This document shows, one piece after another, positions 11,006 through 58,954 of a DNA stretch of 64,000 nt. The notes under the pieces were generated by a model that saw nothing but the letters and a program-made list of their open reading frames with translations, was not told the DNA's origin and made no database searches. Made by a program: the position numbers and the translations under genes. The first letter of the stretch is position 1. Each line of letters starts with the position of its first letter. Source of the DNA: Eledone cirrhosa (taxonomy: Eukaryota); the NCBI GenBank assembly GCA_964016885.1, contig OZ024744.1, positions 67,890,001 to 67,954,000 on the forward strand. The letters are read 5' to 3'.

Positions 11006-12508
11006 TTCAATATACATGCATACACACATGCTCACACGCTTTCACACACACACACACATATATATATATGAGTCCCGGGTTCAATCGGCGGTAACCACAG
11101 TAAGTAAGGTACTCAACTTTATTAGTAGCGTGTATGCAATAAATTCAATATAGAAATGGCTTCTACAGGACTTGAACTGTTTAATTTAAAGGAATATATA
11201 TATATTATATATATATAATATATATATATATAAAAAACATGAGAAGAAAGAAGGATACTGCGTGGTTTACACATGGGTTACATATGATAAAAATAGTCCT
11301 TCGTCAGTGATTTTCCAGCCATCATTGGTATTTCATCGCATTAAAAATCAGATACCTCAGGTTGGTGCGAGCAATGACTAAAAAAAGTTATTGGGACCAG
11401 AATTCGCGTAAGGCGAGGGGGACAAGTAAACAACATAAAAGGATAAAAGCAAACCGAAGATAGGAAAATAAACAAGCAACATGGTTGTCCGGTCAGCATA
11501 AGCTGGGTGGATTTCATGAGCGAGAGAGGTACAGACCGTGTTGATGTGTGTGAGATGTAAGCAAGAAGAGACCCACACAAGCCAAACGGGAGGAAGTGAG
11601 AAGGGGAGAAACAGAGAGTGAGTGAGTGGAAGTGTGAGGAAGAGGTCAGTCGAGAGAAAGTGTAACTGACAGAGGGGGCGAAAGAAGGTGAGAGAAATAT
11701 ATAAATATATATGCCAGTCGATCGACTTTCGTCAAATTGGACCGAGCAAACAATGTTTCCGTTGGTTTTTTCAATTGCTAACAATATCTATCGGTCGCAA
11801 CTCCAGGTAGAAGGAGTAATGTGAAATAAAGTGTCTTGCTCAAGGACATAACGCATTACCTGGTCCAGGAATCAAACATATATATATATATATGTTGTTA
11901 TACTTTGGGAGGGTCACGCTGCCAATAAAAACACATGCATCTGTTGGTTTTCACTTCAATTTATTATAAGTTTCCAGTTGGTTGGTTGATTCGATAACCG
12001 GAAGGTTTTTTATATATTGTCCAAGCTCTTTCGTCACACATTCTGTGACCTCCTCAGTGTTTGAAGACACGTGGCTTAGTGGTTAAGTGGAGTGTTCAGC
12101 TCTAATCATAACATCATGAGTTCAATTGTCAGATCAGGTGGCACATTATCTCCTTGAGCAAGACACTTCATTTCACATTGCTTCAGTCCACTCAGCTAGC
12201 AAAAAAAAATTAGCTGTACTTGTAATTCTCTAGGGTCAGTCCAGTCAGCCTTGTCACATATTGTGCCATGCAGAATTGCTACAATAAGCATGCTTGTATC
12301 TCTGAAATGTTCAGCCACTTATATATTAATTTCATGGGCAGCTAGTTCTGTTGATTGAATCAACTGGAGAAATCACCATTAGAAATGATGGATGTTCAAC
12401 AATATATATATATGTGTGTGTGTGTGTTGGTGTAATGGTAACAGATTGGTCCGGCAAACCAAAGATGTGATGATGATGATATTTATATAAATATATATAT
12501 ATATATAT

Positions 12509-12653
12509 ATGGTGGCTGCCAACTCGTTTTCGAGTACGGCCACTACTTTATATCCATGTAGGAGAACCCCTACCGATGCGCTGAACGAGTGTGACTTTTT
12601 AGTCTAGCCAGCGACTTAAAAACTCTGGTACAAACACTACACTTGTGACAATT
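12509..12653 (-). mobile_element. 3' end (zinc finger + 3'UTR) of the same bipartite family
   Basis: Reverse complement of 38507-38653. Confidence 0.75.
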
Positions 12654-12750
12654 ATATATATACACACATACATATATATATATATATACACACATACATA
12701 TATACACATATATATACATACATACATATATCTATCTATCCCTCTCTCTC

Positions 12751-33209: not shown

Positions 33210-33825
33210 ATATACATAATATGAAAGAGTACTGGTGGAATGTTCCAGTAAAAAACCCATAAAATGCAGGCATAACGGACCAGATATTATGATATGGTAC
33301 AGGGAAAAGAAGGTATGCACAGTAGTGGAAGTTAGCTGGCCAGCAGATGCCAATATAATATCAAAGATTAGCAAAAAGGAGAATATTTATCCAGAACTAA
33401 TGAGAAATCTGCAGATACTCCACCCTGATTACACCTTCAGATTTATGCCTAAGATTATTGGGGCACTGGAATATGTTAGTAACTGCCTCAATACAAATCT
33501 TGAGAAGCTGGGCTTCACAGGAACAGAAAGAACACAACTAGTTAGGAAATTACAAGTAAAATCCATTAATGGAACAGTAAAAATATGTAAAACATTCCAA
33601 ACATTTTGCATCTAATAACTGCATATACACATGTAGAGATGCAAAGCATATACACATGCACACATACAACTCAAAACATACACATCCACACATACAATAA
33701 CATCCATATCTCACATGCAGACATACATATCTACCTAGTTGATGTTGTGTAAATTCCAATGAGAGAGTCTTGTGTCTATGCTAGTAATTTGTGAAATTAT
33801 AAAACCAGAAGAACATACATACATA
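33210..33825 (+). mobile_element. R4/Dong-like 3' fragment
   Basis: ORF 33235-33615 is highly similar to 39841-40374; same 3'UTR; (CATA)n on both sides. Confidence 0.85.
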
Positions 33826-35059
33826 CACACAGTAATGGCTGCATCTTGGTTTTGAGAATTACCATCCCTTGACCTTTTACAGACATGACTATTTAGAATC
33901 TGCCAAGGACTTAGATACCTTTCTGTATATGCTACAGTGAATGAAAAAAGAAAAGGTCATGCTCAATCAACGCACATGAAAGTTGTTTATCTCAAGTGAT
34001 TCCTATACTTGAAGCTTTTCTAAGTGAAGAAAGGCCTTGTTCTGGACCAATCTTCTTCTCTAAACAACAGAGACAGGTATCCAAAAAGAAGAACAGGTCA
34101 CCATCTTTGGCTGCTATCAAGTCACTGGTTTTACATCATCACTGGTTTTACATTCTTCTTTTAAAAGGTTGTCCTAATAAAAACTAGGGATTTCTCATAC
34201 CCGGTGAGCGAACTGTGCACTCAGACACCAAACTTAGCATTTTCATGTCCCAGCACATATATAATACTGAGAACAAACATATAGAAAGTTATAGTAATTT
34301 GGAGAACACATGCACACACGATATGAAAGTGTTCTGGTAGAATGTTTCAGTCAGAATCCTATTAAAATACAAACATAACAGACTAGACATATGGGACAGA
34401 AAAAAGAAGGCACACTCATTAGTGGGAATAAGCTGTCCAGCTTAGTGGTTAGAGAATTAGAATCACTATTGTGAGGATGTGAGTTTGATTCCTTGGTCAG
34501 GCGATGTGGAACTTCCTTGAAGAAGACACTTTATTTCATGTTGCTCCTTTTTCCAGGAGTTATGACCAGTAGATAGTATCAGCAATGGAGTGACTAATGG
34601 AAACATGGTAGTAGTAGTGAGAGGAGGGTGATGATAATGATAATGATAGTGATAATGATAATGATGATGATGATGATGATGACAAAGAAGAGGGGCATTT
34701 GGAATCTGTTTTGTTGTGTTTTGGGGTTTTTAATTATTTAAAAAGTGGTGGATGAAGGCTTACATGCACCCAAATACACAGAGACAAATACACACATGGT
34801 CACATGTACACATAGATGCATGTACACAAAAACCCCCACACACATGCACACATTCATGAATGTGTACAACTATATATGTATACACACACATACACATATG
34901 TGCATGCATATGTATGCATATATATATGTACACACATAGGCATGAGCACCGAAACATGCACACACATACATGATACAAGTATATATACCTATGTGTATAC
35001 ACTCTTAAAAACACATAAATACACAGGTATAAACACACATACATCCACACATAGAGGAG

Positions 35060-37270: not shown

Positions 37271-38051
37271 GCAGAACCAAGAGCTAACAAGACAGCAAAC
37301 TTTCTCAAACCAAATCAATACAAGCTGGGAATTGATTACCAAGAGGAGGTTCTTTTTTGAGACAAAGACAAACCAATAAATTGAAAAATAGACATGATAA
37401 ATATTGGAAGAACCTTAAATTTAAAACTACCCCAACATCTGCCGTGTTGAAGGAAACGATGCACTATGAAAAATGTCAACATTTTACATAGTTTATAAAG
37501 TAAACAAAAGTCTTGGCCTGCTGCTTATCTGTCTGTCTGTCTATTTGTGTGTATGTGTGTATGTATGTATATATGTGTGTGTGTGTGTGTATGTGTGTAT
37601 GTATATGTGTATATGTATGCATCTGTAGGTATATATATTTGTATGTATGTATGTATATATATATATATATATGTGAGTGTTGAAATATTGAAATGTTATT
37701 GGAGGTCTGGGATGGGGGGGGGGGGTCTGAGGTGTGGGGGGGGGGGGGGGGGGGGTGAACTGGAATTTAAACAGTTTGCACCTTTTTGTCTGTGTATGTA
37801 TGTATGTGTGTAGGTAGGTATGTATATATGTAGGTGTGTATGTAGGTATGTATGTATATATGTAGTTATGTGTATGTATGTATGTAGGTATGTGTAGGTA
37901 TGTATGTATATATGTAGGTATGTGTGTATGTATGTATATATGTAGGTATGTGTGTATGTATGTATATATGTAGGTATGTATGTGTGTATGTAGGTATGTA
38001 GGTATGTGTGTATGTATGTATGTATGTATGTATGTATGTATGTATATGCCA

Positions 38052-38653
38052 GGTCACCAGTTGGTGCTACTGGTAACATGTATCCCAGTACAACCTGTCT
38101 CATGGTCAGGTTGTTGGCGACTAAACTAGCAACCCCACCAAGGTTTCTTGGTGAGGAGGGTGACTTTGGACATCCTGCAGGACTAAAAACAAAACCTGTC
38201 AAAGGGCAAAGGAACTCTTAAGAGTCAATGGCCATCCAAAATCACCGGGAGAGATGACCCCTTAGCCTTTGTCAAGGCAGAATTCTAGGAGAAGGAAAAC
38301 TCTGATATAACACCTGCAACCCTGATGGTATCCAATGATGTTGACGTGTTCTTGTTGTTGGTAAATATCATCTTGGTTAAGAGAGTGGGACTGGCTTTGT
38401 GCAGTGCCTTTGCTCACTATAAAAGCTTCATGGCACAGGCATTGCTTTATATCTGGAGATCTCTCTGCACTTGTCGTCACATGGTACCATGGGCCCAGCA
38501 CTGTCAATAATTGTCACAAGTGTAGTGTTTGTACCAGAGTTTTCAAGTCGCTGGCTGGACTAAACAGTCACACTCGTTCAGCGCATCGGTAGGGGTTCTC
38601 CTACATGGATATAAAGTAGTGGCCGTACTCGAAAACGAGTTGGCAGCCACCAT
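38052..38653 (+). mobile_element. Non-autonomous bipartite RTE-type element
   Basis: An RTE-type 5'UTR motif (ctaggagaaggaaaactctga) is fused to a C-terminal C2H2 finger (CSVCTRVFKSLAGLNSHTRSAH*) and a short 3'UTR. Confidence 0.7.
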
Positions 38654-39086: not shown

Positions 39087-39615
39087 AGGGTGCATTTGGA
39101 CATCCTGCAGGACTAAAAACAAAACCTGTCAAAGGGCAAAGGAGCTCTTAAGAGTCAATGGCCATCCAAAATCACCGGGAGAGATGACCCCTTAGCCTTT
39201 GTCAAGGCAGAATTCTAGGAGAAGGAAAACTCTGATATAACACCTGCAACCCTGATGGTATCCAATGATGTTGACTTGTTCTTCTTTTTGGTAAATATCA
39301 TCTTGGTTAAGAGAGTGGGACTGGCTTTGTGCAGTGCCTTTGCTCACTATAAAAGCTTCACGGCACAGGCATTGCTTTATATCTGGAGATCTCTCTGCAC
39401 TTGTCCTCACATGCGCCCAGCACTATGTGTCAATAATTGTCCTACCATGGGCCCAGCACTATGTGTCAATAATTGTCACAGGTGTAGTGTTTGTACCAGA
39501 GGTTTCAAGTCGCTGGCTGGACTAAAAAGTCACACTCGTTCAGCGCTTCGGTAGGGGTTATCCTACATGGATGTAAAGTAGTGGCCGTACTCGAAAACGA
39601 GTTGGCAGCCACCAT
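39087..39615 (+). mobile_element. Second, 5'-truncated copy of the bipartite element
   Basis: Near-identical to 38157-38653, with a short internal duplication. Confidence 0.75.
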
Positions 39616-39666
39616 GTAAGTATGTATGTATGTATGTATGTATGTATGTCTGTATGTATGTATGTA

Positions 39667-40952
39667 CTTCTAGTTTTATAATTTCTCAAATTTTTACCAA
39701 TAGTGAGAGTCGGTTTCTAACATAGACACAAGACTCTCTCATTCGAATTTAAACAATATTGTATGTGTGGATGTGTATGTTTTGAGTTGTATGTGTGCAT
39801 GTGTATATTCTTAGTATCTCTACATGTGTATATGCAGTTATTAGATGCAACATTTTTGGAATGTTTTACATATTTTTACTGTTCCATTAATGGATTGTAC
39901 TTGTAATTTCCTAACTAGTTGTGTTCTTTCTGTTCCTGTGAAGCCTAGCTTCTCAAGATTTGTATTGAGGCAGTTACTAACATACCTCAGTGCCCCAATA
40001 ATCACAGGCATAAATCTGAAGGTATAATCAGGGTGGAGTATCTGCAGATTTCTCATCAATTCTGCATAAATATTCTCCTTTTCACTAATCTTTGATATTA
40101 TATTGGCATCTGCTGTGCAGCTAACCTCCACTACTGTGCATGCTTTCTTTTGCCTGTCACATATCATAATATCTGGTCTGTTATGCCTGCATTTTATTGG
40201 GGTTTTTACTGGAACATTCCACCAGTACTCTTTCATATTATGTATATGGATGTCTTCCACATTGCTGTAGCTTTTAATGTGTTTATTATCGGGGCTATCT
40301 TTTCTACGGATTGCATTGTACAGTGTTTTGGCCACTACATCATGCCTCATAGGTAGATAGTACTGCGATGACATCTTTGGACAGCTGCTGATGACATGGG
40401 TGATATCCTTGATGTTAATTCTACAGAGTCTGCACTTGTTATCACATCTAGGTGTTTTGCCTGCATCTCTATCTCTTTTGTGAATCAGGTATTTTGTGTT
40501 AATTTCCTGTTCTTGGATTGCAAAAGCGTATCCTTCAAAGTGGGAGCCAATATAGCGGTTGTTGGTCCAAGATAGACTACTTTCCTTATCTATATTACTC
40601 TCACTCTGGAACTTCCTGGCAACATATCTATGCAGGATTTTTTGCTGTGATCTTGGAGGAATAGTTTCAGGCAGGCTGATACATCTTATACATCAGGTTC
40701 TGGCATGCAATGGGTCGGTTGTTTTTTGCTAAGTGGGTGTCTTTGTTCTTGGGGACCAGTAATGTTTGTTCTAATGTCAACCATTCTGGTATAAGTGTAT
40801 CTCCCTTAAGAACTTGTTGGTAGAGGTCAGTAAGATACCTCCGATAGAATATCAGTTTTTTGTACCAGTAGCCGACAATCATGTCTCTTCCTGGTATTTT
40901 CTTATCTTGGAGTTTTCCTATCACAGTCTCAAGGATACCCTCACTTATTTCG
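39667..40952 (-). mobile_element. R4/Dong-like RLE non-LTR retrotransposon, internally deleted
   Basis: RT N-terminal motifs (IPGRD..YWYK, PEWLT..LVPK, NRPIAC) are joined to CRLC..HVISSC, RHD and HNRPDI..VEV restriction-like endonuclease motifs. The 3' end runs into (CATA)n. Confidence 0.85.
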
Positions 40953-41629
40953 TATATATGTGTGTATGTATGTATGTGTGTGTGTGTATGTGTATTTTTA
41001 TGTATGTGTGTATGTATGTGTGTGTATGTATGTGTATGTATGTATGTATGTATGTATGTGCGTGTGTATGTATGTAAGTATGTGTGTTTGTGTGTGTGTG
41101 TATGCATGTATATATGTATATATGTATGTATGTATATATGTATGTATATATATATATATGTGTGTGTGTGTATATGTATGTGTGTATGTGTGTATGTATG
41201 TATATGTATGTGTGTATATATGTATGTATATATATATGTATATATATGTATGTATGTGTGTGTATGTATGTATCATCATCATCATCATTTCATTTAACGT
41301 CCACTTTTTCCCTGCTTGCAAGGATGGGACGGGAACTGATTCTGGCTTGATTTCTACAGCTGGATGCCCTTCCTAACACCAACCTCATTTACAGTGAGTG
41401 CTGGGTGCTTTTTTGCCGTGGCACCTCCACGACCACTTTGCAGTGGAATGATATGGACCCCAGTCCCTATCATCTCATTTCTACAGCTGAGTAAACTGGA
41501 GCAATGTGAAATAAAGTGTCTTGCTCAAGGAAACAACACATCACCCGGTCTATATATATACATACACACACATACATACATATATGCATATATATATATA
41601 CATACATATATACATATATATATACGTTG

Positions 41630-42085
41630 GATCACTCTTGAATGCTACTGGTAACATGTAACCCAGTACAACCTGTCGCATGATCGGGTCGTCGGCGACT
41701 AAACTGGCTCCCCACCAAGTTTACTTGGTAAGGAGGGTGATTTTGGACACCCTGCAGGACAAAAAACAAAACCTGACAAAGGGTGGAAGAACTCATAAGA
41801 GTCAATGGCCATACAAAAGTGTGTAAATATATATACACATGTACCGCGTGGTTAAACCACTGGGAGTGAAGGACCCCTAGCCTTTGTCAGGACATCCTTC
41901 TAGGAGAAGGCAACTCAGGAAACTGGGTTAACTCCGACATAAAACCTGCGGCTCAGTAGTTACCAATGATGTTGATCTTTTCTTCTTTTCGGGTTCTAGC
42001 TACTGTCGATCAGAGAGTGGGATTGGCTCAGTGCACAGTCTTTCCTCACTTTAAAAAATATCTTCTCGCACAGGCATTGCACGAT
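41630..42085 (+). mobile_element. Related RTE-type 5'UTR element
   Basis: Diverged homolog of 38052-38445. Confidence 0.65.
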
Positions 42086-42314
42086 AGAATTAATTAATAA
42101 TTATTAATAATGGTATATCATGCAATGATCATACTCGATAATGAGGGGGCAGCATCATGTATGTATGTATATATGCATGTATGTATATATGTATGTATGT
42201 ATATATGTATGTATGTATATATGAATGTGTATATATATATATATGTCTATATGTATGTATATATATATATGTATATATTTATGTATGTATATATCTATGT
42301 ATGTATATATGTAT

Positions 42315-50790: not shown

Positions 50791-51061
50791 CCACTTGTGG
50801 TCATTATGTTAAATTTGCTATGATTAGAAAAATGAATGTGATGATATCAGATAACTAGTAACTAAAGTTGTGTACATTAATCAACTAATATGGCCGAAGA
50901 AATCTCTTTTACATGTAGCTCATACACAGAGACATATACACAGAAACACACACACACGCATACATGCACACATGCATCATGACTGCCTCCTCGTTATCGA
51001 TTATGGCCATTGGATGATAAAAAAAAAATACATATATATGTATACACACACATACATATTC

Positions 51062-51098
<37 letters not shown>

Positions 51099-52149
51099 CA
51101 TCATCATCATCATCATCATTTTACGTCTGCTTTTCCTTGCTTGGAAGGGTGAGATGGGTCCTTTTCAGCACAGCATCTCTCCATTCGTTACGGTCCTTTG
51201 TCATCTCCTCTGTGAGCTTCAGCAATCTGAAGTCAGCTCTCACCACCTACACCCATGATTTTCGTGGTCTATATTAATAAATAACGGTGCTGCGATCGAA
51301 TGTGGCTTTTTAGCCAAACCAATGATCTAAAATGTCTAACACAGAGTTGGCAACCATGATAAAAACATTCATTGGCAATATGTTAAAAACTGACTCTCTC
51401 TCTATTGGTAAATATTTATAAAATTATAAAACCAGAACATACATACTGTACATACATTTTTTTCTCTTATTGCTTTATCTTCTTAGATGATAGCCATCTG
51501 AAGAGCATCTCAATTGTTTTTGCAAGTCTGCACCCCAATTTGTGTGTGAAGGTGATTTTTCTCTACTGTTATTAAAAACAAGTCCAAGACCCACCCACCC
51601 AGGTACTTATAACACTCCAATATAGGAGACATCAGCACAGATGACTGGGGAACTGTGATTGCTTCTGCCTATACTACATTTCCTGAAGTGATGAGACTAC
51701 GGAAATGGTGGTATTTCATTGGCACAAATTGTTGTAGCTGCAGCTACTGTATGGTGCCAATAATTCAGAGTCAAGGTCTGCATTGGCTGGAAAGATAGCT
51801 TGATAGATTGTAAAAGCGACATCTGTAAATCATGGATTATTGTGACAAACACTTGTAAAACACAAGTGCCACTCTCTAAGTCTCAGTAATTATTATCTTG
51901 GCAGAATCAGTAGAGTGTTGGACAACATGCTTAGTGACATAGAGTCACGGCCCTTTACGTTCTGAGTTCAACTCACGCTGAGGTTAACTTTGCCTTTCAT
52001 CATTTATCAGTAATGCACTGGGGTCGATTTAATCGACTTTCCCTTTCCCAAAAGATTGTTGACCTTGTGCCTGAATCAGAAACTATTATCTGATGACATG
52101 TCTAAGCAAGATATCTAGTAATCATGTAAACCACAGGTTTCATTTCAGT

Positions 52150-52472
52150 GTTTCCTTCTCCAAGACTATAGGCATGTGGTTAGATGCTATAGGCATGTGG
52201 GTAAATTCTATAGGCATGCCGATATTATAGGCATGTTGTTAGAATGTCTCAGGAAAGAATCTCTGGACAGATTTTACGGGTTAAACTAACCAGTAAGAGA
52301 CCCAGGAGTAGACCCCGAGCAAGATGGTTGGATAACATCCATGAGCTTGGCTGGTCTCACTTAAGGATCCAGCTGGATCCAGTTAGAGATGGTTGCTTCT
52401 GACAGGAGCCACTGAAAGTGAGAGCTTTACACCCACGACCCCTCTCAGTATTAAGTGGATGAAGAAGAAGAT
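52150..52472 (+). mobile_element. 3' end of a second RTE-type (Expander-like) family
   Basis: Translates as HVVRMSQERISGQILRVKLTSKRPRSRPRARWLDNI; (GAA)n tail. Confidence 0.6.
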
Positions 52473-54569: not shown

Positions 54570-57500
54570 TCATTTCATCATTTCATTTTACGTCCACTTT
54601 TCCCTGCTTGCAAGGGGGGGGACGGGAACTGATTCTGGCTTGATTTCTACAGCTGGATGCCCTTCCTAACACCAACCTCATTTACAGTGAGTGCTGGGTG
54701 CTTTTTCCGTGGCGCCTACACGTCCACTTTACAGTGTGGGCTGGGTGCTTTTTTGCCGTGGCACCTCCACGACCACCTTGCAGTGGGAGGGTGTGGGGGC
54801 ATATTATCTATATGCTTCAGCTTGTATCCATGGGAGGTCGGGTACTCTGTATTACTGCGTGGCGCCAGAAGTCACGGTCGTGTGTCATTGTCTTTGAGAG
54901 GTGTAATTAGGTAAGGTCGGCTTTTATCACCTCATCCCAGGTCATCTTGGGTCTTCCCACTCCGCGGTTTCCATTGACTTCTAGTGCTCTGCACCTTTTT
55001 ATGCAGCTGTCATCCTTCATACGCATCACATGTCCATACCAACGCAACCGCCTCTCCTGCACACAGCATTTGATTCCTCTTATGCTCAGTCTCTCTCTCA
55101 ATTCATTTATGCTTTGTCGTTCACGTATATTACTATTACACATTCATCGGAGCATGCAGGCTTCATTTCTTTCTAATCTACATAAGTCTTCCACCTTCAG
55201 CGCCCAGGTCTCACTACCATGTAACATTGCTGTTCGGATACACGCATCATACAGTTTGCCTTTCATTTTGCAGTGGCAGTAGTTCCCTGAACTTCTTCCA
55301 TCCCGTTCTTACTCTAGTTATTGTACTTTCTGAACACCCACCTCCGCTGCTAATTCGGTCACCTAGGTAGCAGAAGCTGTCTACTGTTTCTACAGAGCCC
55401 TCCCAGAGATTGGTGGTACTTGTTTCCTGTGGCTGTTTGCTGTTTGCTGTCCCAGCACAGCTGCTGCAAGTGAAGCCTACATTCTTAATTAAGCTTCCTG
55501 AGATCCCGCTACATCTCTTGTATACCCATTGTTTGCATTTGGGGCAGAGAATGGAGTTCCTACCTACACCTTTCCTACATACTGAGCAAGGCCATTTCCC
55601 TGAGGGGATCTGGGTTGTGTTTTCTCTTCTACTTACAAGGACCTTAGTCTTTGTCATGTTGACTTTGAGACCCTTTCTTTCTAGTCCCTGCTTCCAAGTT
55701 TGGAATTTCTTCTCTAGTTCTACCATAGATTCAGCTATAAGTCATCAGCATACAAGAGTTCCCATGGGCATCCGGTCTTAAACTCCTCCGTTATTGCCTG
55801 CAGGACTATGATGAACAGGAGAGGGCTAAGAACAGAGCCCTGGTGGACACCAACCTGTACGCTAAATTCCTCACTATACTCATTGCTAATCCTAACTTTG
55901 CTGACTGCTCCCCTATACATGGCTTGTACAGCTTTCACAAGCCATTCATCTACTCCTAGTTTTCTAAGAGCCCACCAGATTATAGCACGTGGAACTCTGT
56001 CAAAGGCTTTCTTGAGATCGACGAATGCCAGGTAGAGTGGCTTACTTTTAGCTAGGTACTTTTCCTGTAACTGCCTCACAAGGAAGAGGGCATCAGGGGT
56101 GCCTCTTCCTGGTACAAACCCAAATTGCATCTCATCTAGTTTCACCCGGTCCCTAATCAACTGTGCTATAACTCTTTCTGTTACTTTCATGACCTGGTCC
56201 ATCAGCTTTATACCTCTATAGTTTCCTCTATCTAGTGCATCACCTTTACCTTTGTAGCAGTTGACAATGATGCTACTGCACCAATCTTTTGGTATGACAC
56301 CTTCTAGTATTACCTGGTTAACAATACGTGTGGTTATAGTGTGACCTACAGACCCAGATGCCTTCAGCATCTTGGCAGCTATACCCGATGGACTGGTTGC
56401 TTTCCCCATCTTCATATCTTTGATTGCCTTACTTACTATGCTGCTGCTGACTTGTACTGTTGGCCCCTCTATAGGGTCTACTTGGGGTAGGGTCTCTTCT
56501 TCCCATACATTCTCCTCATTTAGTAATCTATCATAATGGCTCTTCCATGCATCTTTCTTCTCAGCACTTGTGAGGGCAAGCTCACCTTTATCATTCCGGA
56601 TACACTTCTCTCCATGACATCACAATTCTCTCTGACACACTGCCTCGCAATCTTGAACACCTCCTGTTTCTGGTCCTCACGTTGCAAAACATGCTTGAAT
56701 ATTCTATCCTCTGCTTCCCTCCTAGCTAAGTATACTTGTCGCCTAGCTTCCCTCTTGGTCTCTATGTAATGTACCCTGATTCCCCCCCCCCCGTTCTTCC
56801 ATTCTTTCCATGCCTGTCTCTTGGCCTTAACTGCCTCATCTACCTTATTGTTCCACCACCAAGTCACTCTCCTCCTGCTTGTGGTCTTACTCCAGCCACA
56901 GACCTCATCCGTCGCCTCTAGTAAGTTATTTTTTAGGAACTCCCAGTGCTCTTCTACATTGAATGTCTCTATCTGTTCTTCTTTACTGTCGTAGGCGTTG
57001 AGTAAAATATCTTTAAATCTGTTAGTGGCTGAGGGGTCTTTCTTCTCCAGGTAGGCGTCTAGTTCTGACCGTGAGGTCGCTGACAACTAAGCTATGTTGG
57101 GAGGTACATTCCTCACTAGGGTAGGCTTTTGTGTTTACAACCGTCCATCTGTCACGTCCTCTGATGAGGATAAAATCTATCTGACTAGAGTACTCCCCTG
57201 ATCTATAGGTGATCAGGTGGTTGTCGTGTTTTTTGAAGTTTGTGTTACATATCGACATGTCATTGGCGTTGCAGAATTCTAGAAGTCTGAATCCTTCCTC
57301 ATTTCTTGTGCCAACCCCGTGGTCTCCATGGACTCTATTGAAGCCGTCACAGTGTTTACCTACGTGTCCGTTAAAATCTCCTGTGATGATTAGGAAGTCA
57401 TTGTTGTTTGTTAGAGCAGTAGTGTGCATTAGGGACTCATAAAATCTATCCTTAAGATCATCTGGCAACCCCCGATTGGGGTGCGTAAGCTGATATTATT

Positions 57501-57655
57501 GTGGTAATTGTTTTATTCAGGACTAGTCTGAGTTTAATGATTCTTGCATTTACCCTGTATACTGAGATTACTTTATCTACCCACTTGTCAGCTAGTAGTA
57601 TACCTACACCACCCATCCCATCGTCATTTCCCACCCAGAAAAATTTGTAGCACTG
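54570..57655 (-). mobile_element. RTE-clade LINE, 5'-truncated and frameshifted (APE endonuclease + RT)
   Basis: ORF pieces: APE (GDFNGHVG, SQIDFIL, SQHSLVV); RT (NYRGIKL, QFGFVPGR, FVDLKKAFDRV, GVHQGSVLSP, LYADDL); a Cys-rich insert; C-terminus RRLRWYGHV..GRPKMTW; then 3'UTR and (GAT)n tail. Confidence 0.93.
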
Positions 57656-57676
57656 ATTTTTTCCTATATATATATT

Positions 57677-57737
<61 letters not shown>

Positions 57738-58954
57738 AAACATATATATAGAGAGACATCATTCTAAAACCACTCCAATTCCTTGTCTAAAGCAAGTTGC
57801 ATAAACTATAGAAATAACTTTTCATCTGTCGAGCATTGTAGATTAACAGTTTTTATTTATAGGAAAGATCTATCGAAACTTATTTTTAGGAATATTTGCT
57901 GATTTGGAAATCAAAAATAACTTGTATTTATGGACTGCTTTTACTTTCACAAAATGTAGGCAGCTTCTCTGTCTAAAAATGTTTGTAATAAGAAAGATCA
58001 TAAGTTTTATATTTATCCTACTACTAACAAGTAACTGAAATAATATGAAAACACATGGTTTAGAGGTTAGGATGTTTGGCCCATGATTGTAAAGCCATGA
58101 GTTTGATTCCCAGGAGAACATTATGTCATTGAGCAAGACATTTTATCATACATTGCTCCTGACCACTCAGCTGGCAAAAATGAGTTGCACCTGTAGTTCA
58201 TCATCATCACCATTTAACATCTATTTTTCTACACTGGCATGGGTTAAACAAGTTGTCCTGTTGTGAGCAATGCCAGGTCAGGTGACCTTGTCCTGCTCAT
58301 ACAGAACCGACTGTTTCTACAGCTGGATGGCCTTCTTAACACCAACCACATTTACTGTGAGTACTGGGTGCTTTTTGTCGTGACACCTACATGACCACTT
58401 TACAGTGTGGACTGGATACTTTTTATTGTAACACCTACATGATCACTTTACACTGTCAACTGAGCACTTTTAGTTGTGACACCTATAAGACCACTTTACA
58501 GTGTGGACTGGATGCTTTTTGCCATGACACCAACACAACCACTTTACAGTGAGTACATGTGTTTCTGGAGTCCTGAGTCACTTGTATCTTCAATTATTCA
58601 AAACAAATGGAATAATTATTGTCATAATTGGTAAAGGTCCAGCAGCAACAACAAATACAATGGTGAGCAATCTGTTGTGAAACAATTGAATTCTCACTAG
58701 TGAAACTGACAAGTAATTAACTGAGTATTCCTCAGACATGTATATTTGTATATTTAGAATAATGTAATTATTCTCAGACAGAATCAATCAGACATAATGT
58801 GATAATACTGGATATTTGAATTACCTGTATAACCCAGTGAGGGGGGGGGGGGGAGAATCGACGCCAGTACTTAACTGGCACTTTAATATCAACCTGAGCA
58901 GTATTTGAACTCCGAGAGAAAGAGAGAGAGTTAGAGATTGAGACATAGAGAGTG

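Follow-up and report, generated by a model that had tools for sequence, protein, structure and literature searches.

What fixes the 5' end of a retrotransposon, and what part does the conserved head found there play? The question is raised by positions 41624-41699 of the window (the whole stretch of 64,000 nucleotides analysed here), where a sequence-only reading had placed an HDV-like self-cleaving ribozyme. Several non-autonomous families begin exactly with this head, as does F3, an autonomous LINE of RTE type (Table 1). We take the clade to be RTE from characteristic motifs and from the single APE-RT ORF. F3 is a second autonomous family and carries the same head ahead of its 5' UTR and endonuclease; F4 is an intact LINE of 1181 aa with an APE-RT-zinc-finger layout, in which RT and endonuclease score above the Pfam cut-off and the C2H2 finger below it. 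Subfamily A, whose copy at 41624 lacks about 100 nt of its middle, matches the F4 5' UTR at 91% in its body and the F4 3' end at 96% in its tail. In family E, an exact-motif count shows at least 13 of 30 copies with the head in front of another RTE 5' UTR and tail, and in L007 and L014 the head is fused to a third kind of body. This make-up of head, 5' UTR and LINE tail bears out the earlier view of a non-autonomous RTE-type family; the alignments support a bipartite element derived from an RTE-type LINE (5' UTR and 3' tail, without ORF). The sister copy was also confirmed to begin at the equivalent point. A first look at the 3.0-Gb genome gave 2706 candidates for the window head and 1434 for the sister head, 40 of each being scored, and these are not copy numbers. 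Throughout, G41626 is head position +1, so that the G taken as first nucleotide by the sequence-only reading (41630) is +5; the junction C is +20, and P3 pairs +21 to +26 with +38 to +43 and is followed by a C-N linker.

Bipartite non-autonomous RTE LINEs, Bov-A and RTESINE, have been described (PMC5786205; published work is cited here for its accessible parts). Like them, the window family unites a 5' UTR with the 3' tail of an RTE-type LINE, a tRNA head being absent; it differs from them in its head, predicted to fold like the exoribonuclease-resistant RNAs (xrRNAs) of flaviviruses, and in that A, B and E mix bodies and tails of different RTE families. Copies of A, of B and of the LINEs lie head-to-tail in each other's ATGT tails (L006, L010, L013, L024, L027, L005, L023, L086-L091). 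Both window copies had been described as sense to a DCLK pre-mRNA: two DCX-domain matches on the + strand, 35 kb upstream of the window, fit this, but a motif search gave no DCLK exon.

Table 1. Features of the window (window coordinates; pairings and contacts are predicted)
Feature	Coordinates	Strand	Remarks
Subfamily A copy	41624..42160	+	bipartite non-autonomous: head, RTE 5' UTR, RTE 3' tail with terminal ATGT repeats
Sister copy, subfamily B	38046..38653	+	head 38046-38104, related 5' UTR, RTE ORF end, tail
Zinc-finger remnant (C2H2, C-terminal, RTE-type ORF)	38515..38592	+	read from sequence; F4 finger 85-89% DNA identity over 28 nt
Second subfamily B copy	39087..39632	+	5'-truncated, headless
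xrRNA-like core (predicted): three-way junction, two pseudoknots	41624..41682	+	covariation, descriptor
G41626, predicted PK1 pair with C41669 (ZIKV G3:C44); U41627, predicted triple with A41647-U41667 (ZIKV U4.A24:U42)	41626..41627	+	
P1 5' strand, partner 41671-41675	41628..41632	+	head +3 to +7 with +46 to +50
P2 hairpin	41633..41644	+	U-A to C-G in B, wobble changes in F3, different 5-bp stem in L187
Single unpaired C, P2/P3 junction (subclass 1a discriminator)	41645	+	83 of 84 heads, L187, L192
P3 stem (41646-51 with 41663-68) and loop L3	41646..41668	+	3 of 6 pairs changed on both sides, in L187 or L192
PK2: loop CATG 41655-58 with CATG 41679-82, 3 nt after P1	41655..41682	+	
P4 hairpin straight after PK2, then CTAAA motif	41683..41699	+	first P4 pair broken in window copy

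An HDV-like ribozyme cleaving before G41630 can be drawn in one copy with a P1, a P1.1, a P2 and a C-U-A-A junction, and HDV-like ribozymes have been reported at RTE 5' ends (PMC5786205). All the letter strings behind that drawing are where they had been placed: GATCA (41630-34) and TGATC (41681-85) for P1, CCAGT (41663-67) and ACTGG (41703-07) for P2, CC (41672-73) and GG (41686-87) for P1.1, CTAA (41699-702), and TACTGG (41646-51). However, the five Watson-Crick pairs of P1 in the window copy are due to two changes, 41631 G>A and 41683 G>A, that are absent from most copies. In the majority letters of the 84 indel-free heads (91 were collected, and 7 left out for indels or re-sorting), two of the five pairs are G-U wobbles in subfamilies A and B and four in F3, whereas the P1 of HDV-like ribozymes typically has 6-7 bp and comes immediately after P3/L3 (PMC3774820). 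The letters of P2 are present and intact in B (32-36 of 36), but an A-C mismatch interrupts them in 15 of 26 A and 20 of 22 F3 heads, a kind of mismatch that R2 ribozymes tolerate (PMC3774820). P3 had been called imperfect through decay, yet at most one of its three pairs forms in three registers in A, B and F3 alike; because it is unpairable in the majority letters of every subfamily, the defect does not come from decay of the window copies.

Rfam ribozyme models gave no match to the head, and a scan of the window head stretch at E 10 matched no Rfam family at all. A permissive descriptor of the whole nested double pseudoknot with a C-N-A junction fitted none of the 91 heads and neither of the 2 window copies, although it recovers textbook HDV-like ribozymes in the RTE 5' UTRs of L185 (582-760), L212, L214, L216 and L219, the fold of family E once an insert in L3 is allowed, and 5 weaker fits among the metagenome loci. 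At the loci scanned, Rfam at E 0.5 misses these RTE ribozymes. Moreover, TACTGG, thought merely to compete for a strand of P2, is one strand of a real stem, with CCAGTA as its partner and covariation in two distant relatives. The CC and GG of P1.1 are present, but their pairing, like HDV P1 and P2, is incompatible with the fold favoured by covariation; of the TCG/CGA P4, a hairpin near 41684-98 is real, in a different register. We rejected this HDV register and also an alternative one (P1 from 41624, L3 at 41661-66), because both require the opening of the TACTGG/CCAGTA stem that covariation has kept, and the descriptor fits 0 of 91 heads. Twister, twister-sister, hammerhead, hatchet and pistol ribozymes were likewise discarded (no Rfam match; layouts compared from general knowledge), as was a tRNA or 5S head, of which there was none by eye or in Rfam. 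Nor does the element start at G41630: the family's 5' junction is 41624 or slightly upstream, and 3 of 60 copies start at that G. With P3 missing, P1 wobbly, the junctions elsewhere and the descriptor silent while its positive controls worked, the HDV-like reading of the head is not supported, and we give it hardly any credence.

The fold favoured by covariation is a three-way junction with two pseudoknots, in which P1 has 5 bp, P2 4-5 bp, P3 6 bp and PK2 4 bp. Metagenome contigs searched with the endonuclease yielded 80 loci, and the head is found in the 5' UTR of two of them: L187 (50% protein identity), which has it whole, and L192 (41%), in which its 5' part is missing. Both were built into the head model, so that their model scores are by construction; besides them, none of the 80 loci scored at E 5. 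Across seven sequences, 98.4% of cells pair, compared with 29-42% for slid partners, and 0 of 500 shuffles reach the score; within this set, both-sided changes affect half of the six P3 pairs. In L187, PK2 reads GCTG with CAGC, that is, two compensatory changes at 2 of 4 pairs, which lie outside the covariation score owing to a shift of that loop by the aligner. Hairpins are also seen by eye at the place of P4 in L187 and L192. The covariation comes from two distant single contigs and the structure was drawn from the same sequences; we read it as support for the junction and pseudoknots, not as proof.

The letters expected for tertiary contacts are strongly conserved. Those of the PK1 G-C are found in 80 of 84 heads, and those of the triple's A-U pair in all 84, including an A at head position 22 in every one, and also in L187 and L192. 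The triple U is present in 75 of 84 heads, 8 of the 9 exceptions coming from the B sample, which was itself fetched with a C-bearing query, and L187 has the U, the A-U and the PK1 G-C together. Since these letters never covary, the U.A-U triple and the PK1 contacts are ones that we can only infer. The predicted pairing probability of P1 is 0.92-0.99 in intact cores, against 0.0 in the window copy and 0.05 in the sister copy; with the downstream 18 nt included it goes down to 0.24-0.25 in A and B, and likewise down in several viral loci. Subfamily A has a G-U pair in this P1. The folding energy of intact heads is no better than that of shuffles (z from -1.2 to +0.9), and viral loci are equally unremarkable. 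The window core carries three mutations (41628 C>T, 41631 G>A and 41642 G>A) and fails the xrRNA descriptor, and the sister copy has 38049 T>C, the change known in ZIKV as U4C, at the triple. Pairs of P1, P2 and P4 are broken in the one copy and the triple U is changed to C in the other; both are probably dead.

A tree of the endonuclease, with 40 distinct rows out of 50 matched, places F3, F4, L187 and L192 in one 14-row clade (100/99), which also holds the HDV-bearing L185. We consider it very probable that a conserved xrRNA-like knot, as a fold, lies at the 5' end of RTE-type elements. One contig of sequencing run X8 holds a diverged head with a different putative P2 stem.

The xrRNAs of subclass 1a have a three-way junction with a P1 of 5 bp, a P2 of 1-9 bp and a P3 of 4-8 bp (PMC7527734), a conserved C between P2 and P3 (PMC7527734, PMC8374639), and a U.A-U triple, a PK1 of 1-2 bp and a PK2 of 2-7 bp (PMC7527734, PMC8571300, PMC8374639). 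The heads have this junction with stems in the same size ranges, the single C, the letters for the triple and PK1, and a PK2 of fitting size. In ZIKV, whose numbers equal head numbers plus 2 as far as the junction C, the contacts comprise G3:C44, U4.A24:U42 and A37:U51, and resistance is lost with either U4C or G3C (PMC11929477). At the equivalent of the ring-closing A37-U51, the nucleotide after P1 is U in A, B, F3 and L187 and C in L192; the loop position corresponding to A37 is A in A, F3 and L192 and U in B.

For a direct comparison, 20 viral loci were fetched by a letter motif, so that their letter likeness to the head is partly by selection; 15 of them lie near the 3' end of contigs of 10.6-11 kb. 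Rfam names 10 of these 15 flavivirus xrRNA or SL-IV, 7 of them over the cut-off, and the structure line of SL-IV has the same junction as the head model. With a single xrRNA structure descriptor we recover 64 of 91 heads, L187 and 12 of the 15 flavivirus-sized loci. None of the 5 non-flavivirus matches fits it, nor does any of 80 prokaryotic chance matches (kept from 120 matches to the letter pattern of the head), and 1.25 Mb of shuffles gave 1 match. Under a covariance model built from RTE heads alone, 15 of 16 flavivirus sites receive 14.0-34.1 bits and the 5 non-flavivirus matches stay within 8.8-11.8; the separation is incomplete, as 9 of the 80 chance matches reach at least 14 bits (best 25.5). 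The Rfam xrRNA models RF03547 and RF01415 gave no match to the head or to L187 at E 10, and RF03547 gave none across the genome; these models also miss 5 of the 15 flavivirus-sized loci. Our working assignment of the head is to an xrRNA-like structure, not to an Rfam family.

Put side by side with flavivirus 1a xrRNAs (ZIKV xrRNA1 and MVEV xrRNA2), the head shares the G-U-C-A-G-G start, the 5-bp P1, the P2 hairpin and single C, the P3 with A-U as its second pair, the C-N linker, and P4 coming next. PK2 lies 2-3 nt after P1 in viral loci and heads alike, and the DNA junctions of the heads, though blurred by microsatellite flanks, would fit a viral-type 5' end shortly before the ring. However, the viral structures belong to a 3' UTR and the head to the 5' end of a chromosomal retrotransposon; the closing pair of P1 is U-A in RTE heads and C-G in 13 of 13 parsed flavivirus loci; the letters of P4 differ; and the head, missed by the Rfam models, has a resistance that is only predicted. 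A true subclass 1a xrRNA of shared ancestry with those of mosquito-borne flaviviruses is a possibility that we hold only tentatively and rather doubt; a LINE of a marine invertebrate and an RNA virus would have exchanged it at some time, and RTE LINEs would use HDV ribozyme, twister and xrRNA interchangeably at their 5' ends. C-G-type variant patterns of P3 had 0 matches in the element's own genome. Within the viral contigs, the downstream head motif was confined to two contigs, nearly identical to each other, where it sits in coding sequence that is repeat-like and unrelated, and searches there returned neither an RTE relative nor an LP-type tail.

The silence of the Rfam xrRNA models could also mean that the fold is real but has another role (binding of LINE protein, translation or stalling of reverse transcription) and that its likeness to xrRNAs is convergence without nuclease resistance; the youngest intact family, F4, moves headless, as this would allow. 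Against it, the positions of the unpaired landmarks (junction C, triple U, PK1 G-C) are conserved, and copies hold the whole knot plus 2-4 nt upstream, so that reverse transcription passes through the knot. We regard this reading as very improbable.

The position of the 5' junctions bears on what the head does. Sixty copies were picked on sequence 280-590 nt downstream, with a reference starting at -2; 31 of them start at -2/-1, which is 5-6 nt before G41630, 1 at +1, 3 at +4, 3 at +5 and 22 further in. The letter at -2 depends on the family (G in 17 of 25 in F3, A in 37 of 38 B heads), and 85 of 91 heads have T at -3. Of 39 xTAT junctions in subfamily B, 16 have TTAT directly before the G, versus 4 of 371 in flanks (p 6e-15), an excess not significant elsewhere (A, p 0.09; F3, p 0.21). 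Given this excess and a fifth letter that varies, the element-borne letters of B reach -3 or -4, and they are microsatellite-like, as if bases of the donor flank had been kept. Overall, DNA junctions fall at -2 to -4 and are blurred by the microsatellite flanks. Class 1 xrRNAs halt Xrn1 four nt upstream of PK1 (PMC12081666); the letters of B reach 3-4 nt upstream of the ring, a comparison that on our side concerns DNA junctions only.

F4 offers a natural contrast, the head being absent in 30 of 30 copies. Instead, these share a flank upstream that is staggered in most of them and reaches about 1.2 kb in the longest, extents that may err by tens of bases; without a head, then, upstream RNA is copied as well. 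Four of the seven long copies share a start, with a GTAAGT donor-like site 45 nt later, and a precise start can therefore arise without the head. F4 (L123-L152, L345-L351) is the youngest intact RTE-type family, with many copies 100% identical over 356 nt, and its captured flank (about 45 nt, then the donor-like site) resembles a host first exon and intron.

Such a start without a head is relevant to the view that the head is an internal RNA polymerase II promoter, its 5' end being the start of transcription and the knot either protecting decapped RNA or being a by-product. F4 would then have swapped its head for a flank with its own common start; precise 5' ends are what an internal promoter gives; and the module has been swapped onto different bodies and tails (family E, L007/L014). 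Moreover, the LP ('LINE promoter') domain, proposed as a promoter from its position (PMC4758252), shares with the head its P1 letters and the GGCGACTAA tail (by eye). A DNA promoter, however, leaves unexplained both the two-sided pair changes in P3 and PK2 and the match to the tertiary landmarks of xrRNAs. No G excess was found at -4/-5 in subfamily B, as a copied cap might leave, which speaks weakly against a copied cap, and those who described the LP domain state that its role as a promoter is untested (PMC4758252). On balance we think a promoter unlikely, though by no means negligible as an explanation.

The LP domain itself, of about 70 nt, is found on Nimb and RTE LINEs and mollusc SINEs, its bearers being Nimb-17_LMi, I-3_DR, RTE-9_CPB and mollusc LP/MESC SINEs (PMC4758252). 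It resembles the head in lying at the extreme 5' end and in being swapped between elements. In the scallop copies of its report (Fig. S2), we see by eye a CAGGT/ACCTG stem, a possible loop-to-tail pseudoknot and the same tail; the middle is different from that of the head, with one loop inside P1 and with P2, the junction C and P3 absent. In its accessible part, that report proposes a promoter and no RNA fold (PMC4758252).

HDV-like and twister ribozymes occur at the 5' ends of RTE and R2 elements (PMC3774820, PMC8501958, PMC5786205); the word ribozyme is absent from the accessible part of PMC13282606. These ribozymes occupy the same position as the head and likely do the same job, which is to define a 5' end from a longer transcript. 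They cleave and leave a 5'-OH, whereas the head is predicted to block an exonuclease and leave a 5'-phosphate, and has no HDV core. A twister-like motif, seen by eye, opens an RTE 5' UTR at L241:135-180. In family E (L153-L182; for example, L155:1483-1665), an A-type head is followed by a microsatellite and by a second RTE 5' UTR with an HDV-like fold, in which a hairpin is inserted in L3; as 0 of 30 copies start at its P1, this fold seems not to cut there.

Because other RTE 5' UTRs in the sample hold ribozymes there (HDV-like in L185, L212/L214 and L216/L219, twister-like in L241), the head occupies a ribozyme position, and it could itself be a self-cleaving ribozyme of a non-HDV fold that cuts just before the first G. 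In keeping with this, both the L185 HDV-like ribozyme and the LP domain have the CTAAA that follows P4 in the head, but L187 and L192 have no CTAAA after the knot, an Rfam ribozyme match is absent, the conserved letters are those of the xrRNA core, and the junctions of B spread over -3/-4 with donor-like letters. We find such a ribozyme improbable. The GGCGACTAAAC tail after P4 (window 41693-41712) resembles the J4/2 region of the L185 ribozyme and the tail of the LP domain, and may be a vestige or a separate signal.

We favour the view, which we consider likely although well short of certain, that the head is an exonuclease stop that defines the 5' end of the element, trimming read-through RNA without self-cleavage. 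Copies in introns or microsatellite arrays would be transcribed from outside promoters, and the stacking of elements in one another's ATGT tails makes it likely that read-through is common. Once the cap is lost or the RNA is cut upstream, Xrn1 (or, in the nucleus, Xrn2) would digest the flank and stall at the ring, giving a stable element RNA with a fixed start. The LINE reverse transcriptase, arriving from the 3' side, would unfold and copy the knot, so that daughter copies would have their first base at the stall site and bring along 3-4 nt of donor flank. In other RTE families, HDV or twister ribozymes do by cleavage what the knot would do here by resistance. What the sequence-only reading had proposed, namely that the family sets its own 5' end out of read-through RNA, is plausible as a role, but as the work of a self-cleaving HDV-like ribozyme it finds no support.

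A 2021 review describes xrRNAs as characterized only in viruses and asks whether eukaryotic genomes have them (PMC8374639, accessible part), and a literature search over titles and abstract openings, with subscription papers mostly outside it, returned no report of a natural xrRNA in a retrotransposon. The head is a high-copy, directly testable candidate for an xrRNA of a cellular genome. If it resists Xrn1, it would add a third to the means by which non-LTR elements define their 5' end, would suggest a function for 5' domains hitherto called promoters, would bear on the origin of flavivirus xrRNAs, and would provide a natural 5' stabiliser for retrotransposon-based gene insertion. Were the shared ancestry also true, retrotransposons would be using a cellular-genome xrRNA in place of a ribozyme.

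Other elements were noted along the way. Older or partial headless relatives of the same 5' UTR and tails lie at 33830-34190, 50975-51380, 52140-52165 and 12484-12655 of the window, all on the minus strand, as does a decayed LINE of another RTE-like family, with APE and RT pieces, at 54910-57763. Also on the minus strand, at 39841-40692, is a 283-aa frame resembling by eye the C-terminal part of a restriction-endonuclease-type LINE, of which a 450-nt inverted copy lies 6 kb away at 33250-33699. The 5' UTRs of L189, L190 and L195-L208 carry another conserved 5' motif, of about 150 nt, common to several RTE families.
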